Shown piece by piece: positions 1 through 10,500 of a DNA stretch of 64,000 nucleotides. The stretch lies in assembly GCA_045546195.1 (NCBI GenBank), contig JAZQCH010000001.1, positions 231,489 through 295,488 on the forward strand, written 5' to 3'. Positions within the stretch are counted from its first letter, which is position 1. Each line of letters opens with the position of its first letter. Made by a program: the position numbers and the translations under genes. Under the pieces are notes generated by a model that had not been told where the DNA came from, ran no database searches, and saw nothing but the letters and a program-made list of their open reading frames with translations. The stretch comes from Candidatus Enterousia sp. Lineage in GTDB: Bacteria > Pseudomonadota > Alphaproteobacteria > Rs-D84.

Positions 1-13
1 CAAGGGACAATAA

Positions 14-889
14 ATGTCATCAATTTTTGTATTCCCAGGCCAGGGCGCGCAAAGCGTTGGCATGGGACATGAACTGTATGAATCAAATTCGGACGCACGC
101 GCGGTGTTTGACGCGGTGGATGCGGCATTGGGCGAAAAACTGTCGGACGTAATCTTTAATGGTCCGGTCGATACTTTAACATTGACCGCAAATGTTCAGC
201 CGGCAATTATGGCGACCTCTATTGCTATGATGCGTGCGGCGGGGTGTGCACTGCCCGAATATGTGGCGGGACATTCCCTGGGGGAATATACTGCGCTGTG
301 TGCGGCGGGTGCGTTATCGGTTGGCGACGCGGCAAAATTATTGCGTGTGCGTGGCAATGCGATGCAGGCTGCTGTACCTGTGGGTGACGGTCTGACGGCG
401 GTGATTCTGGGGTTGGATATTGATGCGGTGCGTGAAATTTGCGCGCAAACAGATTGCGATGTTGCCAACGACAATTCCCCGGGCCAGGTTGTAATTTCGG
501 GCCTGCGTGAAACGGTTGAAAAAACAATGGAATTGGCAAAATCCAGTGGGGCCAAGCGTGCCATGCCATTGGCATTGTCTGTGCCGGTTCATTGTCGTGT
601 ACAATCACCTGCGGCGGATGCGATGCGTGCGGCATTGGATTCGGTTGAATTTAAAAAGCCAATTGTTCCAATTATATTGAATAAAACGTGCACGCCAACA
701 ACGGACATTGATGAAATCAAAGATGCGCTGGTCTATCAAATGACGCATGGCGTTCGTTGGCGCGAAAGTGTTTTGAACATGGCGAACCTGGGCATTACAG
801 AAATGATAGAGGTTGGACCCGGTTCTGTTTTAACGGGCCTGTGTTCACGCATTACTGATAAAATAACCGCAAAGAAATTGGAGATATAA
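14..889 (+). CDS. fabD: malonyl CoA-ACP transacylase
   Basis: 291-aa ORF with N-terminal 'FVFPGQGAQSVGMG' and active-site 'GHSLGEY' motif typical of FabD; followed immediately by fabG. Confidence 0.9.
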   Translation: MSSIFVFPGQGAQSVGMGHELYESNSDARAVFDAVDAALGEKLSDVIFNGPVDTLTLTANVQPAIMATSIAMMRAAGCALPEYVAGHSLGEYTALCAAGALSVGDAAKLLRVRGNAMQAAVPVGDGLTAVILGLDIDAVREICAQTDCDVANDNSPGQVVISGLRETVEKTMELAKSSGAKRAMPLALSVPVHCRVQSPAADAMRAALDSVEFKKPIVPIILNKTCTPTTDIDEIKDALVYQMTHGVRWRESVLNMANLGITEMIEVGPGSVLTGLCSRITDKITAKKLEI

Positions 890-891
890 CT

Positions 892-1620
892 ATGTTTGAT
901 TTAACTGGCAAAGTTGCTTTGATCACAGGCGCAACCGGCGGTATCGGTGGCGCAATTGCGCGTAAAATGCGCGAAGCGGGCGCGACCGTTGTTGTATCGG
1001 GCCGTAATGTCGCCAAAATGGACGCAGAATTCGGCGATGAATATATCAAAATTCCATGCGACCTGGCGGCGGATGGCGGGGCGGTTGAATTGGTTATGAA
1101 TACGATTGAACGGGCGGGCAAAATCGATATCTTGATTAACAACGCGGGCATCACACGCGACACATTGTTAATGCGCATGACCGACGATCAGTTTGACGAA
1201 GTCATCAACACCAACCTGCGTTCATGTTTCAAGATGTGCCGTGCGGCAATCATGCCAATGATGAAGAATCGCTTTGGCCGTATTATCAACATGGCGTCAA
1301 TCATCGGCACCATCGGTGGCCCAGGCCAGGCAAACTATGCCGCATCCAAGGGTGGCATGATTGCCATGACAAAATCCATCGCTGCCGAGGTTGCGTCCCG
1401 TGGCATCACCGCCAACGCGATTGCGCCGGGCTTTATCAAAACCCCAATGACGGATGTTCTGCCCGACGAACTGAAAAAAACATATCTGGCGCAAATTCCG
1501 GCGGGTCGTTTTGGCGAACCAGACGATATTGCGAACGCGTGTGTGTTCTTGGCATCCGACGAAGCGTCATACATCAACGGCCAAACCCTGCATGTAAATG
1601 GTGGTATGGGGCGTTTCTAA
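892..1620 (+). CDS. fabG: 3-oxoacyl-ACP reductase (SDR family)
   Basis: 242 aa; Rossmann motif 'ITGATGGIGGAIA', 'NNAGITRD', catalytic 'YAASKGG' pattern; 3 bp after fabD stop. Confidence 0.9.
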   Translation: MFDLTGKVALITGATGGIGGAIARKMREAGATVVVSGRNVAKMDAEFGDEYIKIPCDLAADGGAVELVMNTIERAGKIDILINNAGITRDTLLMRMTDDQFDEVINTNLRSCFKMCRAAIMPMMKNRFGRIINMASIIGTIGGPGQANYAASKGGMIAMTKSIAAEVASRGITANAIAPGFIKTPMTDVLPDELKKTYLAQIPAGRFGEPDDIANACVFLASDEASYINGQTLHVNGGMGRF

Positions 1621-1623
1621 TCA

Positions 1624-3267
1624 ATGAAACATTATGATGTAATCATTATTGGTGGCGGACATGCGGGCACGGAATCGGCCGCCGCGTCCGCCCGTCGTGG
1701 TGCGAAAACATTGTTGTTAACCATGGCGCAATCCGACCTGGGGGCGTTATCGTGTAACCCCAGTATTGGTGGTCCCGGCAAATCCCAGATGGTTGCCGAA
1801 ATGGATGCGTTTGGTGGCGTTATGCCGCGTGCCGCCGACCGTGCGGGGATTCATTGGCGCACATTGAATGCGACACATGGCGCGGCGACACGCGCCCTGC
1901 GTGCGCAAATCGACCGTGATTTATATCATAATGCGATTGTTGATATTTTGTCGGAATATAAAAATCTGGATGTTGTTTTTGAACCGGTTGAATCTGTGGA
2001 TTTAGAAAACGCAATCGTTAACAACAAATATCATGCGCGCGCAATTGTTTTAACGACGGGAACATTTTTGAACGGCACGGTCACCCGTGGTGCGGAAAAA
2101 ATCCCGTCGGGACGTTTAATGGACGACGGCACATACCAAGACCGCGACCAAAATATATCAAATATTTTACAGAACGCGGGCTTTCGCATGTTGCGCCTGA
2201 AAACGGGCACGCCTGCGCGCATAAAACGCGATTCGATTGATTTTTCCGTCTGTGAAATTCAACCCGGCGACACGCCCCACGATTGGTTTTCCGACGGCGA
2301 TGAAAACAATAATTATGACGCGGTCTGCTATATCACACATACAACCGAAACTACGCACCAGATTATTCGTGATAACATCAAAAACGCGCCAATGTACAAC
2401 GGCGACATTCGTGGCACCGGCCCGCGCTATTGCCCCAGTCTGGAAGACAAGGTTATGCGTTTCCCCGAACATACATCACACCATGTGTTCCTTGAACCTG
2501 AGGGCTATGCCAGCGACCTTATCTATCCCAACGGCATTTCCACCAGTTTTGGCGCCGACATCCAGGACATCTGGATTCGTTCAATCCCGGGTCTGGAAAA
2601 CTGCGAAATTGCGCGCTATGGCTATGCGATTGAATACGATGCGATTGATGCGCGCGCCCTGAACGATAAATTACAATCCACGGACCGGCCACACCTGTTC
2701 TTTGCGGGTCAAATCAACGGCACATCCGGGTACGAAGAAGCGGCGGCCCAGGGCCTGGTTGCGGGGGCAAATGCTGCGGCGTATGCGCTGAATCTGCCGT
2801 ATTTGGAAATTGACCGCACAAATTCAATGATTGGGGTACTGATTGACGACATAACAACATTGGGTGTGGATGAACCATATCGTATGTTCACATCGCGCGC
2901 GGAATACCGCCTGAAACTGCGGGCGGACAATGCGATTGCACGCCTGGGAAAAATCGGTGTGGATTTGGGGTTAATTGACGCGGCGGCATACGAACGGAAA
3001 TTGGCGGCGCGCGCCGACCAAATTGCCGAAAATGATAAATTTTATGCGGGATATATCGCGCGTAATGAACGCGAAATTGCCGCCTATAAACGCGACGCAG
3101 AATTAAAGATTCCGTCTGATTTTGTGTATTCGGGCCTGCCGGGGCTGACCAATGAATTGGTTGAAAAATTAACGGCAACGCGCCCGGAAAACATTGCCGA
3201 CCTGACGCGTATACCGGGCATGACCCCCGCCGGCATCATGGTCGTGCTAAGAAAAATCAAGGCATAA
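1624..3267 (+). CDS. mnmG: tRNA uridine 5-carboxymethylaminomethyl modification enzyme MnmG (GidA); 3' end rebuilt by an adjacent insertion
   Basis: 547 aa; FAD motif 'DVIIIGGGHAGTE', 'GPRYCPS', 'FLEPEG', 'GYAIEYD', 'FAGQINGTSGYEEAAAQGL', 'EPYRMFTSRAEYRL' aligning along MnmG rather than the shorter TrmFO; C-terminal 17 codons are duplicated downstream at 4558-4609. Confidence 0.85.
   Translation: MKHYDVIIIGGGHAGTESAAASARRGAKTLLLTMAQSDLGALSCNPSIGGPGKSQMVAEMDAFGGVMPRAADRAGIHWRTLNATHGAATRALRAQIDRDLYHNAIVDILSEYKNLDVVFEPVESVDLENAIVNNKYHARAIVLTTGTFLNGTVTRGAEKIPSGRLMDDGTYQDRDQNISNILQNAGFRMLRLKTGTPARIKRDSIDFSVCEIQPGDTPHDWFSDGDENNNYDAVCYITHTTETTHQIIRDNIKNAPMYNGDIRGTGPRYCPSLEDKVMRFPEHTSHHVFLEPEGYASDLIYPNGISTSFGADIQDIWIRSIPGLENCEIARYGYAIEYDAIDARALNDKLQSTDRPHLFFAGQINGTSGYEEAAAQGLVAGANAAAYALNLPYLEIDRTNSMIGVLIDDITTLGVDEPYRMFTSRAEYRLKLRADNAIARLGKIGVDLGLIDAAAYERKLAARADQIAENDKFYAGYIARNEREIAAYKRDAELKIPSDFVYSGLPGLTNELVEKLTATRPENIADLTRIPGMTPAGIMVVLRKIKA
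3217..3267 (+). repeat. direct repeat copy 1 of mnmG 3' terminus (within the functional ORF)
   Basis: 'gggcatgacccccgccggcatcatggtcgtgctaagaaaaatcaaggcataa' repeated at 4558-4609 with 8 mismatches in 52 nt; first 21 nt identical. Confidence 0.8.
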
Positions 3268-3284
3268 AAATCACAGCCCTTTTT

Positions 3285-3312
3285 GTCATTCCCGCGCAGG
3301 CGGGAATAGGGG
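3285..3312 (+). repeat. hairpin repeat copy A (attcccgc-gcag-gcgggaat; 8-bp stem, 4-nt loop)
   Basis: 'gtcattcccgcgcaggcgggaataggg' also at 4130-4158 (+) and 4523-4551 (-); followed by 'cttgaaaa' -35-like box. Confidence 0.8.
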
Positions 3313-3320
3313 CTTGAAAA

Positions 3321-3650
3321 TTACTGTCCTTGTTTGAATCCATCAACAATATATTCAATAATTTTCGCAAGTATAAATGGTGTACAAAAAGCCAATATTA
3401 AATACAAAATAATAAACATATCGCCATCTAAAAAGTCATCCCAATCCGCCATAATGGCCATAATACAACACAGCACAATAGCTACAACTAGGCATAGGCG
3501 ACGAACTCCCGTATTGTTCGGAACCGCAACTAATCTAATCATTTGTAAGATTTTATTGATGTTGTTATGAAAATCATCAATAAACCAAATGATTATACCC
3601 CAAACAATACAAAATAACATAATACCTAAAATTTCTATTAACAGTTCCAT
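3321..3650 (-). CDS. small hydrophobic membrane protein (~109 aa, 2-3 predicted TM)
   Basis: ORF track 3321..3785 trimmed to internal Met 'MELLIEILGIMLFCIVWGIIIWF' whose ATG (3650) lies 4 nt after the stop of the upstream gene; strongly hydrophobic segments; AT-rich codon usage unlike neighbours. Confidence 0.45.
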   Translation of the reverse strand: MELLIEILGIMLFCIVWGIIIWFIDDFHNNINKILQMIRLVAVPNNTGVRRLCLVVAIVLCCIMAIMADWDDFLDGDMFIILYLILAFCTPFILAKIIEYIVDGFKQGQ

Positions 3651-3654
3651 CTTT

Positions 3655-4017
3655 TTATTCCTTTTTGCCGATAATTGCCCAAATGAGTGCGCTGATTGTA
3701 AAGAAAAGCCAGCCACCAAAAATACCACCCAAAGCAGAGAGTTGGTACACTGTATATTTTCTCTTAATATTTCGTTTCCAAGCAATAAACATTGGAGTAT
3801 ATGTCATGATTATTATAATTGGCACAAATATCAAAGAACGGACAAAAGATACTTTAAGGGCAATTTCTTGTGCGCTAGAATAAGCATATTCGGCATTTAA
3901 GGCGGTTTGTCTAATATCGTCATAAGTCATCGCAAATGTAAATATTATACCAATGGTGATTGCCCAAAGAAACATCCTTAATGGAAACTTATTGTTATTA
4001 AGTTGGTTTGTTTCCAT
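3655..4017 (-). CDS. small hydrophobic membrane protein (~120 aa, ~3 predicted TM)
   Basis: ORF track 3655..4134 trimmed to 'METNQLNNNKFPLRMFLWAITIGIIFTF' start preceded by AGGAGAG Shine-Dalgarno (revcomp of 4024-4030); hydrophobic stretches; forms tight operon with 3321..3650. Confidence 0.5.
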   Translation of the reverse strand: METNQLNNNKFPLRMFLWAITIGIIFTFAMTYDDIRQTALNAEYAYSSAQEIALKVSFVRSLIFVPIIIIMTYTPMFIAWKRNIKRKYTVYQLSALGGIFGGWLFFTISALIWAIIGKKE

Positions 4018-4129
4018 AATATTTTCTCTCCTTATACAAAAATAACCGCCATAATTCCCATCGGATTCATGTCTAATTATATCAGGAAAATATACAAATG
4101 TAAAATTGTGTGTATTGGATAAAAACCTT

Positions 4130-4158
4130 GTCATTCCCGCGCAGGCGGGAATAGGGTC
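4130..4158 (+). repeat. hairpin repeat copy B / left terminal inverted repeat of GIY-YIG cassette
   Basis: 'gtcattcccgcgcaggcgggaatagggtc' is the exact reverse complement of 4523-4551. Confidence 0.85.
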
Positions 4159-4187
4159 TTGAAAAAATTTGTGTGCCCTTGTACAAT
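4159..4187 (+). promoter_or_regulatory. sigma70-like promoter (TTGAAA-17 bp-TACAAT) reading into GIY-YIG gene
   Basis: -35 TTGAAA at 4159-4164, 17-bp spacer, -10 TACAAT at 4182-4187; the -35 is part of the repeat-associated 'cttgaaaa' motif also seen at 3313-3320. Confidence 0.5.
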
Positions 4188-4193
4188 TTTGAT

Positions 4194-4523
4194 ATGAAAG
4201 ATTATCACTTCTGGGTTTATATATTGTTTGATGAACGCGCCAAGGGCACTTATATTGGTGTGACGAATAATCTTGAACGGCGTATGTATGAACACAAAAT
4301 GGGATTGGACGACGGTTATACCAAAGAACATAATATTCATAAATTGGGATATTTTGAATACTACAAATATGTTAATAATGCGATTGCGCGTGAAAAACAA
4401 TTAAAGAAATGGAAACGTGCATGGAAATATCGTCTGATTGAAACCATGAATCCAAATTGGCTTGATTTGGCCGACGATTTAGAGAAAAACATAGCGTTTT
4501 GGAAAAACAAAGAAACAGAATAG
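4194..4523 (+). CDS. GIY-YIG nuclease family protein (UPF0213/YhbQ-like, stand-alone)
   Basis: 'HFWVYILFDERAKGTYIGVTNNLERRMYEHK' = GIY...YIG motif pair with the conserved Arg and Glu; ORF track gives 4173 (GTG) but ATG 4194 sits just downstream of the predicted -10; ~109 aa. Confidence 0.8.
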   Translation: MKDYHFWVYILFDERAKGTYIGVTNNLERRMYEHKMGLDDGYTKEHNIHKLGYFEYYKYVNNAIAREKQLKKWKRAWKYRLIETMNPNWLDLADDLEKNIAFWKNKETE

Positions 4524-4551
4524 ACCCTATTCCCGCCTGCGCGGGAATGAC
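4523..4551 (-). repeat. hairpin repeat copy C / right terminal inverted repeat of GIY-YIG cassette
   Basis: 'gaccctattcccgcctgcgcgggaatgac' = reverse complement of copy B; begins at the GIY-YIG stop codon. Confidence 0.85.
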
Positions 4552-4557
4552 AAAATG

Positions 4558-4609
4558 GGGCATGACCCCCGCCGGCATTATGGTGGTGCTGCGAAAGATT
4601 AAATCATAA
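4558..4609 (+). pseudogene. displaced orphan copy of mnmG 3' terminus (encodes ...GMTPAGIMVVLRKIKS*)
   Basis: 52-nt segment 85% identical to 3217-3267, in frame ending with TAA, no upstream ORF body. Confidence 0.75.
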
Positions 4610-4616
4610 AAACATC

Positions 4617-4645
4617 TTGCCAAAATTGGCGGTGTGCGGTATAAT
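4617..4645 (+). promoter_or_regulatory. sigma70-like promoter (TTGCCA-17-TATAAT) for Cys-rich protein gene
   Basis: TTGCCA 4617-4622, 17-bp spacer, TATAAT 4640-4645. Confidence 0.55.
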
Positions 4646-4672
4646 TCCAAGGAAAAATACAGGAAAAACACT

Positions 4673-4702
4673 GCCTAATCCAAAGGGACGATTAGATTAG
4701 GC
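4673..4702. promoter_or_regulatory. 30-nt palindromic element 'gcctaatc-N14-gattaggc' between promoter and start codon
   Basis: perfect 8-bp inverted arms; same 30-mer family (25/30 identical) found twice at 62009-62123 upstream of paralogous gene. Confidence 0.6.
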
Positions 4703-4755
4703 ATAATTTCCAAAAACAATTTCCCAGATTTACGCATGTTTTATCCCCCTTTGTT

Positions 4756-5793
4756 GTGCCTAAAAAAAACGTCGGTTTATTTGCGGTATTTTTGACGGCA
4801 ATAATCGGTGTTCGTGACGCGAACGCATACACCAGTTATATATGTAACGAGATTGGCTCCTGTTCAACTTACTATGTCGCCGGTGGATTCTCCACCACCG
4901 TATCATCCGTGCCAGATGTATATAGTTATGCAGAAGGTTGTGCCCAAGCTGTATGGGTCCGAACCAGTGCCGACTCAACCAGTTCTGGCGGATGCGTGTT
5001 GATTCCAACGTGTCTGTCCTGTGATGACGGGTATGAATTAACAGATAGCGCGTTGCCAATCCTGTTTAACAACAGCAATTCTGCATGTACCAGTGTCAAC
5101 AGTCAATACGACATAAAATACTGTGCCAAAAAATCTGACAGTGGGGACAGCGGCAGTACAACAACCTGCACATCCAGCAATTGTGCATCGTCTGGTTGGT
5201 CGACACACAGTACAGGATACCTGGTGCAAACATTTCGCGAATGTGTAAATGACCAATGTGTTGAAACAGTGCGATATGGTTGTGCCCAGGGTTATTTTGG
5301 ATCAGATGATGGCATAAATCCATATCTAAGTTCGGCATATGGTTGCGTTAAATGTCCGGGCTATTATGTGAGTGGCAACAGCTATGCGACAACAACCAAT
5401 ACCACGCTTGTGCCCACGGTTGCGGGCTGTTATGTTGTGGCAACCGGCGACGAAACAGAATTCTCAGACGGAACAGGAACCTATGTTTTTACCCCGTATT
5501 CCAACGCAACCGAATACTGTTATTATGATTTTGGCAGTTGTACCGGCGTTACACCGGCTTGTGCCACGTCGTCCGGCACAGCATTTGCTGTGGTTTCTGG
5601 CACCAAGGCACACGATGAAACGGGAACTCATTGCTGGTGCAATGTCAATGGCAAAAGTTTCTATTTTTCTTCGCAAAGCACTGCATCTGCTTGTGCAGCA
5701 AACTGTGATGACATGTGTTCAAATGCCGTTTTTGGATTTGGCGCAAATGGCGGTCAACCAATGGTTTCGCTAGACGACCTTGGGTGCTATTAA
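4756..5793 (+). CDS. secreted Cys/Gly/Ser/Thr/Tyr-rich protein, no recognisable domain (paralog P1)
   Basis: 345 aa, GTG start, signal peptide 'MPKKNVGLFAVFLTAIIGVRDANA', >30 Cys, low-complexity S/T/G/Y composition; compositionally similar to 62159..63316 and 30416..32557. Confidence 0.6.
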   Translation: MPKKNVGLFAVFLTAIIGVRDANAYTSYICNEIGSCSTYYVAGGFSTTVSSVPDVYSYAEGCAQAVWVRTSADSTSSGGCVLIPTCLSCDDGYELTDSALPILFNNSNSACTSVNSQYDIKYCAKKSDSGDSGSTTTCTSSNCASSGWSTHSTGYLVQTFRECVNDQCVETVRYGCAQGYFGSDDGINPYLSSAYGCVKCPGYYVSGNSYATTTNTTLVPTVAGCYVVATGDETEFSDGTGTYVFTPYSNATEYCYYDFGSCTGVTPACATSSGTAFAVVSGTKAHDETGTHCWCNVNGKSFYFSSQSTASACAANCDDMCSNAVFGFGANGGQPMVSLDDLGCY

Positions 5794-5851: not shown

Positions 5852-5927
5852 GCCGGTGTAGCTCAGCTGGTAGAGCATCTCATTCGTAATGAGGGGGTCG
5901 TAGGTTCAAGTCCTATCACCGGCACCA
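5852..5927 (+). tRNA. tRNA-Thr (anticodon CGU)
   Basis: cloverleaf: acceptor gccggtg/caccggc, D-arm gctcagctggtagagc, anticodon loop ttCGTaa, T-arm ggttcaagtcc, encoded CCA. Confidence 0.85.
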
Positions 5928-5935
5928 CTTATCAA

Positions 5936-5958
5936 TCCCGCCTGCGCGGGATTTTTTA
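5936..5958 (+). terminator. rho-independent terminator after tRNA-Thr
   Basis: 'atcccgcctgcgcgggatttttt' hairpin plus T-run; core is the same cccgc-NNNN-gcggg hairpin as repeats A/B/C. Confidence 0.7.
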
Positions 5959-7541: not shown

Positions 7542-10500
7542 ATGGCATACAAAAAAACAGACCCACGTCCAGACTTTACAGCAACTGAAAAACAGATGCT
7601 GTCCAAATGGGCAAATGAAAATACATTTCATAAATCACTGGAAAACACCAAATCCGGTCGTCCATTTTCATTTTATGATGGCCCGCCGTTTGCCAATGGT
7701 TTGCCACACTGGGGGCATTTGGGTGTATCGGTTGTCAAAGATATGGTTGCCCGTTTCCAGACAATGTCTGGCCGTTATGTGTCGCGTGAATTGGGGTGGG
7801 ACTGTCATGGATTGCCGGCGGAAAATTCAGTTGAAAAAAAGCAATCCCGCCCCGCCAAAGATATTGTTGCCACCGACGGGATTGATGCGTTTTGTGACAT
7901 GTGTCGCACGGACGTTATGACATATACAAACGAATGGAATCGCTTTATCACCCGCATGGGTCGTTGGGTTGATATTGGTGATGGCTATGGTTATAAAACC
8001 ATGGATAAAAACTATATGGAATCTATGCTGTGGACGTTAAAGTCATTATATGACAAGGGTCTGTTGTACAAAGATTACAGTGTTAACCCATACGACTGGG
8101 TCAATGGCACGGTTGTGTCTAATTCCGAAGCGTCCCAGGACTATCGTGAAATAGTTGATGATGCGGTGACGGTTTGGTTTGAATTGGAAAATGGTGATCG
8201 TGCGATTGCCTGGACAACAACGCCATGGACATTGCCGGCAAATTCTGCGTTGGCTGTAAATCCAAACATGACATATCTGCGTATGCGTGACGCCGATGGC
8301 GCGGTCTATGTCATCGCAGAAAGCCGCCTGCGCGCATATGAAAAACAGTTCGCCAACGCAACCGAATTTGGCCGTGTGACGGGGGCAGATTTGGTTGGCA
8401 TGCATTATGCGCCGCTGTTCCCATACTATGCGGGCACGTCTGATTTGCTGTATCAAATCATCCCGGCCGACTATGTATCAGACGGTGACGGTACGGGCAT
8501 TGTTCATATTGCGCCGGCCTATGGTGCGGACGACTTCTGGGCGGCAAAAAATATCGACCCAAAATTCCCAGTTTTGTTAAATGTTGACGCCTATGGCAAC
8601 TTTACAGACGAAGTTGTGGACTTTGCCGGTCAAAATATCTTTGCGGCAACCCCTGCGATAATGGAATGGCTGAAAACAAATGGCCGCCTGGTTAAAAAAG
8701 AACAGTATAAACACAGTTATCCATTTGGCGACCGGTCCAAGGAAAAGTTAATCTATCGTGCGACTGATTCTTGGTATATCGATGTGCCAAAAATCAAAGA
8801 TAAATTGTTGGCAAACAACGCAAAGGTTAATTGGACGTCCGCCGGTGAACGTTTCCGTATGTGGATTGAAAACGCGCGCCCTTGGTCAATTTCACGCAAC
8901 CGCTTCTGGGGCATGCCACTGCCAATCTGGGAACGCGACGGGGAATATAAAGTATTTGGTTCAATCGCCGAACTGGAAGAATTCTTTGGTGTAAAAATTG
9001 ATGACCTGCACCGTCCAACATTGGACAAATTAACCAAAGACGGTTGGACACGCATCCCAGATGTATTGGATTGCTGGGTTGAATCTGGTTCTATGCCATG
9101 GGCGTCATTACACTATCCGTTTGAAAATGTGGATAAATTCAATGCGACGTTCCCTGCCGACTATATTATCGAAGGCCAAGACCAAACCCGTGGTTGGTTC
9201 TATGCGTTGATGGTACTGGCGACGGCATTATTTGATAAACCTGCGTTTATGGCGGTATCTGCCAACGGTATGGTTGTGGACGAAAATAAAAAGAAATTCT
9301 CAAAATCCCTGCGCAACTTTGTGAACCCAGAACAACAGATTGAACAGTACGGCGCGGACGCGGTGCGTTTGTATATCCTGGGGTCTAATTTTATGAAGGC
9401 CGAACCCGTCCCCGTTGACAAAGAAGGCAAGGTCTTTGTTGAATCAACAAAGACAATCCAAACCCCATTGTGGAACGCGTATCACTTCTTTACATTGTAC
9501 GCGAACGCGGGCAACGTCACCGCGCACGAAATGACCAACCCAACAAATCCGTTGGATAAATATATCCTGGCGGAATTGAATATGTTGACCGACATTGTGC
9601 GTGATGCATTGACCGAATATAAACCAGACGTCGCCGTCAAAGAATTTGTACGATTCTTGGATATCTTGAACAACTGGTACATCCGTCGTGGTCGTGCGCG
9701 CTTCTGGGACGAAGAACAAGACGCGTTTGACACGCTGTACACAGTATTGACGCGTTTCTGTCGCGTATTGGCACCGTTCGCGCCGTTTGTATCTGAATAT
9801 ATCTATACGAATCTGACGGGTGATGAATCGGTACATTTAACATCGTTCCCAGAAACGGTCGCCACCGACACAAAAATCGTGGACGATATGCGTCGTGTTC
9901 AATCGATTGTATCAACCGGCAAGCAATTGCGCGAAGCGTACAAGTTGCGCAACCGTCTGCCGTTAAATTCATTGACGGTTGCGGGTGCGAATATGCCCGA
10001 ATACGCCGATATTATCCAAGACGAACTGAACGTCAAATCGGTTGTGTTCCGTGAAACATTTGATGATGTTGCGGATTCATTTGTGTACCTGATTACACCA
10101 AAAATCGGTGCGCGCCTGGGTGGTGCGTTAAAAGACATAATCCCATCGGTCAAACGTGGCGATTATGAATTGGTGGGCGATAAATTATTGACCGCGGGCC
10201 ATGAATTGAACGCGGACGAATTTGAAATGCGTCTGACCATGCGTGATGGCGTGACGGGTGCCGCACTGCCCGATAATACGGCGGTTGTTGTACTGGACAC
10301 AGATGTTAATTCAGAATTGGTCGCCGAAGGGTTGGCGAACGATGCCCTGCGCTTTATCCAAGACACGCGCAAGGCAGCAAATCTGGACGTATCTGACCGT
10401 ATCATTTTGACATATTCTGCGGATCCGGCCCTGGCAAACGCGCTGGAAATCCATAAAAAACACATCATGCACGAAGCGCTGATTGTCGAAATGGTTGCGG

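Follow-up and report, generated by a model that had tools for sequence, protein, structure and literature searches.

Organisation of the mnmG to tRNA-Thr interval

The region described here is part of a stretch of 64,000 nucleotides (nt), called the window throughout, from Candidatus Enterousia sp., an uncultured gut alphaproteobacterium (assembly GCA_045546195.1, contig JAZQCH010000001.1, positions 231,489 to 295,488 of the forward strand). It consists of a small cassette with a GIY-YIG nuclease gene, located between mnmG and a tRNA-Thr gene, and of an orphan copy of the mnmG end at the far border of that cassette, which is probably a scar of recombination between two alleles. All positions are those of the window, and the features are collected in Table 1.

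A repeat search and blastn (E 6.6e-11) agree that the end of mnmG occurs twice, as had been noticed in the initial annotation of this DNA. The length of the duplicated end is 52–55 nt, and the two copies form a direct repeat of 55 nt with 85% identity. A stop codon closes each copy, the first reading GMTPAGIMVVLRKIKA and the second GMTPAGIMVVLRKIKS (...KS*). The 1,287 nt between the copies (3271–4557) have a GC content of 34.9% against a window median of 46.7%, the lowest value among 1,255 sliding windows of the same length across the 64 kb, so that the marked AT-richness first reported for this segment is borne out. Three small genes and a set of hairpin repeats are present between the copies as described at that time, and no open reading frame (ORF) for an integrase was found in 3271–4557.

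Table 1. Positions of genes, repeats and promoter-like sites between mnmG and tRNA-Thr
Feature	Position	Strand	Remarks
mnmG	1624..3267	+	547 amino acids, intact; Pfam GIDA 2.6e-140, SAM_GIDA_C 4.5e-18
Terminal repeat copy 1	3216..3270	+	Functional mnmG end (...ATC AAG GCA TAA AAA); cassette-linked type
SRM-1, NTS-like hairpin repeat	3277..3320	+	Stem-loop 3288–3307; GTCATT box faces left; carries a copy of the CTTGAAAA −35 box
memA	3321..3653	−	110 amino acids, three hydrophobic segments; variable cargo
memB	3655..4017	−	120 amino acids, three hydrophobic segments; 1 nt upstream of memA (operon); variable cargo
Promoter-like site of memB-memA	4076..4104	−	Strong site; TTTACA-17-TATAAT, 11/12, with TG
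SRM-2, left hairpin of minimal ssn module	4128..4165	+	Stem-loop 4133–4152
Promoter-like site of ssn	4159..4187	+	TTGAAA-17-TACAAT
ssn	4194..4523	+	109-amino-acid single-domain GIY-YIG nuclease, Ssn family; Pfam PF01541 1.5e-15
SRM-3, right hairpin of ssn module	4522..4557	−	Stem-loop 4529–4548; GTCATT box faces right
Orphan mnmG terminus	4558..4612	+	...ATT AAA TCA TAA AAA; type where mnmG abuts the cysteine-rich gene; contiguous with mnmG in L093/L094
Promoter-like site of cysteine-rich gene	4617..4645	+	TTGCCA-17-TATAAT; just past the orphan stop, as past the real mnmG stop in L093
Cysteine-rich protein gene	4756..5793	+	Possible signal peptide (hydrophobic N-terminal segment); partner on the right side of the joint; hypervariable between strains
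tRNA-Thr(CGU)	5852..5927	+	Right anchor of the variable region, conserved in all lineages

The three hairpin repeats, here called SRM-1 to SRM-3, are copies of one unit of 32–38 nt. SRM-1 is 97% identical to 4128–4165 as a direct repeat and forms an inverted repeat with 4522–4559, while SRM-2 and SRM-3 are perfect inverted repeats around the nuclease gene (4128–4159 versus 4522–4553; 32 nt, 100% complementary). Folded as DNA, SRM-1 reaches −13.8 kcal/mol (z −4.3), and the fold z over the hairpins ranges from −2.7 to −4.3. The −35 box of ssn is fused to the SRM tail, and this fusion is kept in all homologous cassettes. Judged from its sequence, the minimal module would span about 4120–4554 (435 nt) and consist of a hairpin, a promoter, the gene for the 109-amino-acid putative GIY-YIG nuclease of single-stranded DNA (ssDNA) and an inverted hairpin. 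A further direct copy of the hairpin apparently encloses two exchangeable genes for small membrane proteins.

These two cargo genes, memA and memB, sit between direct repeats of 38 nt (3283–3320 and 4128–4165), each made up of an SRM and the ssn −35 box. Across the contigs of a sister lineage (see below) the cargo consists of memA, memB and a third gene in L097 (memA 92% and memB 87% identical in amino acids to the window), of other small genes in L081, and is missing in L136. As a repeat-bounded insert, the cargo follows the same logic as the duplication of the mnmG end, one level down. The initial suggestion that it might be an addiction or defence module found no support: PADLOC gave no match, and a weak match of memB to PHROG 1039 “immunity to superinfection” (E 2.8e-6) stands alone. 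No match was obtained for memA in Pfam, NCBIfam, PADLOC or PHROG, nor for memB in Pfam, NCBIfam or PADLOC. Sequence searches of NCBIfam, PADLOC and PDB were uninformative for Ssn, memA, memB and the cysteine-rich protein alike, and Rfam gave nothing within the insert, its only matches being two tRNAs.

A nuclease of the Ssn family and its hairpins

The Ssn family (cd10448), first described in 2025, comprises single-domain GIY-YIG proteins of about 94 amino acids (Chenal et al., Nat Commun 2025, PMC11893778). According to that study, they bind a hairpin repeat as ssDNA only and cleave a few nt 5' of it. The target in Neisseria is the NTS, CGTCATTCCCGCGMAVGCGGGAATCYRG, with the dRS3 repeat as its core, and is cut 3 nt 5' of the NTS; the general name for such targets is SRM. 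With a degenerate motif, 42% of the Ssn homologues were found to be bracketed by SRM on both sides. SsnA of N. meningitidis restricts incoming transforming ssDNA, cutting at NTS in vivo, and NTS clusters of Neisseria are associated with membrane-protein genes (PMC11893778).

In the protein encoded in the window, the GIY-YIG domain (residues 6–79, E 1.5e-15) is the sole domain; the other Pfam match is weak, overlaps it and belongs to the related T5orf172 model. The protein shares 46% identity over 89 amino acids, ungapped, with the 94-amino-acid SsnA of N. gonorrhoeae (tblastn against the chromosome E 2e-17, BLASTP E 2e-27), which lies below the E < 1e-10 to Neisseria SsnA that serves as the homology criterion of the Ssn paper. 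Furthermore, its Y9, Y20 and E67 align ungapped with the catalytic Y6, Y17 and E64 of N. meningitidis SsnA. Each of the three hairpins holds ATTCCCGCGCAGGCGGGAAT, in keeping with the dRS3 consensus; the element has three such sites, compared with 0.04 chance matches expected in the window. A base-by-base comparison by hand found agreement between the window hairpin and the Neisseria NTS at 25 of 28 positions. The core of the published SRM motif (HGTCWY..YYVSBRH..WNVSBRG..RNCYNB) matches at 3284, 4129 and 4552 (minus strand) and at one other site of the window, shuffled sequences giving a mean of 1.3, and no dispersed SRM copies were found elsewhere in the 64 kb.

Based on the homology, the catalytic residues and a hairpin match with a deviating 3' tail, we file the gene in the Ssn family, as what appears to be a new member with a specificity that is probably its own. 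A total of 3,159 Ssn homologues were found at E ≤ 1e-5, the closest of them in metagenome-assembled genomes of gut or rumen Alphaproteobacteria or Rickettsiales.

A GIY-YIG protein next to a conserved gene could also be a free-standing homing endonuclease that cuts double-stranded mnmG and spreads by double-strand-break repair, and a homing-type insertion had been among the possibilities first raised for this locus. The domain itself points in that direction, as does a weak resemblance to TIGR01453, the model of group I intron endonucleases, which at 19 bits falls short of the cut-off of 56. The protein is a single-domain member of the Ssn family, whose genes typically lie between their own target hairpins, has 109 amino acids and lacks a DNA-binding domain, and homing would not result in a duplicated flank. 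Moreover, four tested members of the family cut their hairpin as ssDNA, and N. meningitidis SsnA showed no activity on double-stranded DNA (PMC11893778). We consider homing very improbable.

Two types of mnmG end and three allelic states

The two copies of the mnmG end open with an identical core of 21 nt, GGGCATGACCCCCGCCGGCAT, and differ at 8 positions, 7 of which are synonymous in the mnmG frame. In a simulation, at least 7 synonymous changes among 8 random substitutions were obtained with P ~1e-4, which argues that both copies evolved as real gene ends and not as a decayed duplication made in situ. They appear to have diverged under selection in different lineages.

Comparison of mnmG loci revealed three arrangements of the interval. 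In the first, found in L093 and L094, mnmG runs directly into the promoter and the cysteine-rich gene, with a single terminus. The empty site that the initial annotation proposed to look for thus exists, and in conspecific genomes: fabD, fabG, mnmG, orf445 and ileS are 98–99.7% identical in amino acids to those of the window, and mnmG of the window is 96.5% identical in nt to that of L093, compared with 91.9% for L081. L093 aligns to window positions 1–3270 and then from 4558 on, 3271–4557 missing exactly. Its single terminus (L093 3665–3719) is matched by both window copies and reads ...ATT AAA TCA TAA AAACAT, which is the orphan type.

The second arrangement, mnmG-SRM-(cargo)-SRM-ssn-SRM-tRNA-Thr, is that of a sister lineage (L081/82, L096, L097, L135 and L136; mnmG about 92% identical in nt), in which both the orphan and the cysteine-rich gene are missing. 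Here the terminus reads ...ATC AAG GCA TAA AAATCACAGCCC, as in copy 1; the final three codons and the 3' flank of copy 1 are of the same type as in the cassette carriers L081, L097 and L136. The third arrangement is that of the window, with its joint of SRM-3, orphan and cysteine-rich gene, which recurs in the independent assemblies L091 and L092. More distant relatives from the genome collection (MnmG at most 78% identical) have the order fabD-fabG-mnmG-(variable)-tRNA-Thr-ileS, with a single terminus and no Ssn. The matches of terminus and flank to two allele types show that the window joins two alternative alleles, and it is thus a composite of the first and second arrangements.

The presence of direct repeats on both sides of an insert would also be expected from a duplication in situ (target-site or tandem) that diverged later, or from an assembly artefact. 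The excess of synonymous differences speaks against the former, and so does the match of each copy, flank included, to a different natural allele; an artefact is at odds with the joint of SRM and orphan being found again in two independent assemblies. Both are scarcely credible as explanations.

As to which part came last, the cassette is about 92% identical in nt to that of the sister lineage, a divergence equal to that of mnmG (~8%), so the cassette could be vertically inherited. It may thus be old here, the piece made up of the orphan and the cysteine-rich gene being the incomer. If so, L093 would represent an allelic replacement of the whole interval, which would explain why its cysteine-rich protein shares 57% amino acid identity with that of the window, compared with 97% in L091/92 and 98–99.7% for the flanking genes. 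Alternatively, an unsampled donor gave the mnmG end and the cassette to an L093-like recipient, which is the polarity proposed in the initial annotation. The notion of a replacement terminus that displaced the original one holds to the extent that the orphan matches the native terminus and its downstream flank, and that the copy fused to mnmG travels with the cassette; that the AT-rich DNA is the inserted part is not established.

The cysteine-rich protein has no family match in Pfam or NCBIfam and, going by its pattern of conservation, looks like a surface antigen that diversifies while its regulatory leader is kept. This leader of 146 nt (4613–4755; the L093 stretch compared, gene included, is 3720–4897) is well conserved, with few mismatches, and holds a strong promoter-like site and a hairpin of 12 bp at 4672–4703. 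A similar leader is located downstream of an Ssn cassette in L120. At the other end of the interval, a hairpin after tRNA-Thr (5934–5953; AATCCCGCCTGCGCGGGATT followed by a T run) has a stem nearly equal to the SRM core and no GTCAT box; it is probably a terminator, and relatives carry unrelated stems there. MnmG usually has a length of about 620–630 amino acids. In this clade it has 547, and both the GIDA domain and the C-terminal helical-bundle domain are kept, pointing to a shortened middle or linker.

The joints and a second scar

At the left joint, informative sites change from L093-like to cassette-lineage-like between 3129 and 3243, which is compatible with homologous crossing-over in mnmG as well as with an exchange inside the 21-nt core. 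At the right joint, cassette homology stops at 4554 and mnmG homology starts at 4558, with only 0–3 nt of microhomology, which makes it a non-homologous join at the outer border of SRM-3. With the cut position carried over from the Neisseria enzymes (PMC11893778), the minus-strand cut by Ssn is predicted at 4555/4556, about 2 nt from the start of the orphan homology. A pseudo-SRM in the mnmG end (GTCATGCCCG, minus strand) was also considered as a targeting site and rejected, its predicted cut at 3228/3229 disagreeing with the joint at 3215/3216.

A second scar of this kind was found in L099, a GC-rich metagenome contig from an unrelated genome. Here a gene of the TldD/PmbA family ending ...SNGGPTMRSRARLTGV* is followed by SRM, ssn and SRM. 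After the right SRM come GAC and 6 nt, the same spacing as in the window, then the diverged orphan SNGGLTMRSRARLCM*, an extra ORF of 88 amino acids and a pmbA-like partner gene. In its relative L101, which has the same gene end and a cassette that is 93.8% identical, an SRM pair stands where L099 has the orphan and the extra ORF. By parsimony, a fragment starting inside the gene end would have been added at the hairpin border in L099. Both scars are 45–55 nt long. No further gene-end orphans were found around the Ssn genes of 11 annotated replicons (from Neisseria, Planktothrix, Azospirillum, Rhizobium, Sinorhizobium, Shinella, Novosphingobium, Sphingobium and Spirosoma), where only SRM-type repeats were present.

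Taken together, the AT-rich segment is best read as an Ssn-SRM cassette, and we consider it fairly probable that the duplicated mnmG end is not a pair of attachment (att) sites and is instead a recombination scar, at which a cassette-bearing and a cassette-free allele were joined at the outer hairpin. The two alternative alleles, mnmG-cassette-tRNA and mnmG-cysteine-rich gene-tRNA, would both have been retained in one chromosome. One side would have recombined through ordinary homology, and the other would have been sealed by a non-homologous join of the outer border of the right hairpin (4554–4557) to a site in mnmG 52 nt short of its stop. Ssn would have produced the free end at that border by acting on ssDNA, for example incoming transforming DNA or a displaced strand. 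The family assignment, the alleles and the position of the joint are shown by the sequence comparisons, while the roles of Ssn cleavage and of transforming ssDNA, and the choice of the incoming partner, are inferred. The mnmG tail of about 50 nt on the other partner would have been too short for homologous pairing and would have been end-joined, the cassette not being replaced; this would explain the 45–55 nt length of both scars. For Neisseria, Bentley et al. 2007 had put forward a single crossover at dRS3 that RecA-dependent exchange in the neighbouring gene then completes (PMC1797815), and by analogy the mechanism outlined here would match their model for dRS3 arrays.

Several observations weigh against this explanation. 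The full SRM motif fails at its 3' tail, an A following the palindrome where Neisseria SsnA needs a critical C. The GTCAT ends point outward here, so that the predicted cuts fall outside the cassette, and they point toward the gene in Neisseria; furthermore, cut sites vary by at least one nucleotide among Ssn homologues (PMC11893778). Orphan scars are found in 2 among about 25 distinct cassette contexts examined, and natural transformability of this organism is not established. The Leu-Arg-Lys codons look swapped between the two copies, opposite to the flanking codons: copy 1 (3246–3255) has CTA AGA AAA, resembling TTA AGA AAA of the empty-site allele L093, and the orphan (4588–4597) has CTG CGA AAG, resembling CTG CGC AAA of the cassette lineage (L081/L097/L136). 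A simple end-join leaves this swap unexplained, and it may hint at a reciprocal, Campbell-type crossover within the repeat, at gene conversion between the repeats, or at an unsampled polymorphism. Finally, a perfectly identical core of 21 nt is what a site-specific recombinase would also leave.

The latter points bear on the model of the initial annotation, in which a tyrosine or serine recombinase acting in trans mobilised a small integrative element, which entered the 3' end of mnmG site-specifically and replaced the terminus. An identical core followed by diverged arms is consistent with such an event, as are the empty site in L093/L094 and the restoration of mnmG by an element-linked terminus, and the possible reciprocal mosaic in the repeat fits a crossover within the core region. 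Against it, the insert lacks a recombinase ORF, and an integrase seed from L083, run with phmmer against every ORF of the window, gave no match, a weak test that covers the window only. In the sister lineage the cassette is present and a second att copy is not, the right boundary falls on a hairpin border that is common to Ssn cassettes at unrelated loci, and a second scar, in another gene of an unrelated genome (L099), is again located at an Ssn cassette. We therefore regard an integrative element as improbable, and a decayed island of the integrase type does not agree with a nuclease of the Ssn family, a right joint at the Ssn hairpin border and a sister-lineage cassette that has no orphan.

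Related modules in other genomic contexts

A search for further copies of the insert, as suggested in the initial annotation, had a mixed outcome: neither the window nor 80 mnmG loci yielded another copy of the insert or of Ssn, memA or memB, but related modules (80–94% identical in nt to that of the window) are present in at least four unrelated contexts. In one the module follows mnmG, in another it has an unknown gene on one side and a VTT-domain gene with rbfA on the other, in a third it adjoins rpmJ and virB3-virB4, and in a fourth it precedes a cysteine-rich-gene leader. Whichever of them is compared, homology to the window module ends at 4553–4555, and homology to distant cassettes begins at 4120. 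More widely, Ssn homologues with 42–95% identity were compared from 20 metagenome loci and several ENA contigs; most of them lie between inverted hairpins of the GTCAT type, which are of many sequence types. The changes in their stems are compensatory (CCCGC/GCGGG versus CCTGC/GCAGG), also when the two ends of a single module are compared. The Ssn protein P0010, identical throughout L117–L125, is found with two different sequences upstream and two downstream, and the metagenome samples contain all four pairings, reflecting either a multi-copy cassette that gives assembly cross-overs or real recombinants at the cassette. A 547-amino-acid ORF upstream made L116 a candidate for a further mnmG locus, which was ruled out by sequence.

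Such varied contexts raise the question whether SRM-ssn-SRM is an autonomous transposon resembling an insertion sequence (IS), which Ssn would excise and insert in the manner of TnpA in IS200/IS605 or of RAYT with its REP (repetitive extragenic palindromic) repeats, the mnmG tail having been co-mobilised or captured. GIY-YIG nucleases are not known to have strand-transfer activity. The module does have terminal inverted repeats of 38 nt that are 95% complementary, P0010 and its close relatives have differing flanks, with homology breaking at the hairpin borders, and the authors of the Ssn study themselves remark, in their discussion, that NTS-ssnA-NTS resembles an IS (PMC11893778). Against a transposon, that study reports binding and cleavage only (PMC11893778), no known transposase family is represented, and the 64 kb contain neither dispersed SRM copies nor a second cassette. 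The flanking repeat of 55 nt, 85% identical and with near-all synonymous drift, is not a fresh target-site duplication, and the cassette occupies the same locus in two lineages with a core-like divergence (about 92% identity). Autonomous transposition thus seems unlikely.

Also unlikely, and put forward tentatively, is the idea that the SRM borders are joining points defined by the enzyme: Ssn would nick ssDNA at the outer edge of the hairpin, and the end would capture foreign fragments or move the cassette. If true, SRM-ssn-SRM would be a nuclease-driven system of gene acquisition or mobility, comparable to REP/RAYT or to capture in the manner of integrons and based on a GIY-YIG enzyme. Such a system would leave as its footprint orphan gene termini at a fixed spacing (GAC and 6 nt) from the hairpin, and the first two natural cases would be those in the window and in L099.

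Three other arrangements of these repeats were observed. In one lineage, the ~90-nt spacer between inverted SRM hairpins (downstream of the ssn stop, about +45 to +200) is reversed between samples (L126–L128 versus L132), the opposite orientations suggesting an inversion by recombination between the inverted hairpins; ssn in this lineage follows a putative tRNA gene (tRNA-like sequence, GCA anticodon) and has no upstream SRM. On plasmid AZO_p3 of Azospirillum lipoferum 4B (L139, 255.4–256.0 kb), ssn is located between sufB and sufC in the suf operon, with an inverted SRM pair on each side. In L095 (positions 7590–7790), a more distant relative with MnmG 83% identical in amino acids, the interval from mnmG to the cysteine-rich gene is made up of an inverted pair of another SRM-like hairpin (of the GTCATTGCGAG type) with no ssn in between. 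This pair resembles a non-autonomous doublet, and genes with PilO, T2SSE and T2SSF Pfam domains (type II secretion or type IV pilus-type) are located just downstream.

Implications and comparison with known systems

The Ssn/SRM family is already known; the new and testable element is the orphan-terminus scar at the predicted Ssn cut site, seen twice. The locus offers three natural allelic states, namely the cassette alone, the neighbour gene alone, and both with a duplicated gene end. With these, the long-standing idea that hairpins of the dRS3/NTS type mediate one side of gene-shuffling recombination (Bentley et al. 2007, PMC1797815) becomes directly testable, and the orphan-terminus footprint is searchable in any genome. 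For annotation, it serves as a warning that an AT-rich insert beside a duplicated gene end is not necessarily an integrase island.

The closest resemblance is to the Ssn-NTS/SRM systems of Neisseria, which share a single-domain GIY-YIG protein of about 100 amino acids, a gene bracketed by inverted hairpins of 30–38 nt with a GTCATTCCC...GGGAAT core, and hairpins that adjoin genes for small membrane proteins (PMC11893778). The host differs, being an uncultured gut alphaproteobacterium, and unlike in pathogenic Neisseria, with hundreds of hairpins per genome (PMC11893778), the hairpins are located at the cassette only within the 64 kb. Furthermore, the cassette border bears an orphan gene terminus, a feature for which the Results and Discussion of the Ssn paper contain no mention (PMC11893778).

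In REP/RAYT and IS200/IS605 systems, a small nuclease gene lies between inverted copies of its hairpin, and the hairpin is recognised as ssDNA and cut at a fixed position a few nt aside. The cassette resembles them in its nuclease gene bracketed by inverted hairpins, with ssDNA recognition and cleavage assumed here by analogy with Neisseria. Those enzymes are of the HUH/Y1 type, whereas the only enzyme here is a GIY-YIG nuclease. A literature search pairing GIY-YIG with “repetitive extragenic palindromic” found nothing.

Some integrative islands, such as the SGI1 family at trmE/mnmE, target and restore the 3' end of a housekeeping gene. The locus is similar to these in its identical core, its diverged replacement terminus, the orphan original at the far end and the AT-rich insert. 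It differs in the lack of an integrase in the insert, in its size of 1.3 kb, in having a boundary set by the Ssn hairpin, and in the sister-lineage cassette that has no second att copy.

Homology-facilitated illegitimate recombination has reportedly been observed in transformable bacteria. Common to that process and the window are one homologous anchor, a joint at 0–3 nt of microhomology, and foreign DNA added beside a conserved gene; the difference is that the joint here falls at a (predicted) nuclease-defined site, in two independent cases.

Finally, the interval is comparable to the intergenic mosaic elements or minimal mobile elements of Neisseria (PMC1797815; Saunders & Snyder 2002, cited there). 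In both, a variable cassette is located between conserved genes (here mnmG and tRNA-Thr/ileS), alternative contents are found at a syntenic site, and hairpins of the dRS3 type bound the exchangeable segments, which are AT-rich between GC-rich hairpins. The mechanism proposed for Neisseria, with one repeat-mediated join and one homologous crossover, would also fit (PMC1797815). Unlike in Neisseria, the phylum-level context is a different one, and there are three hairpins and no long arrays; moreover, both alleles have been kept, resulting in the duplicated gene end.

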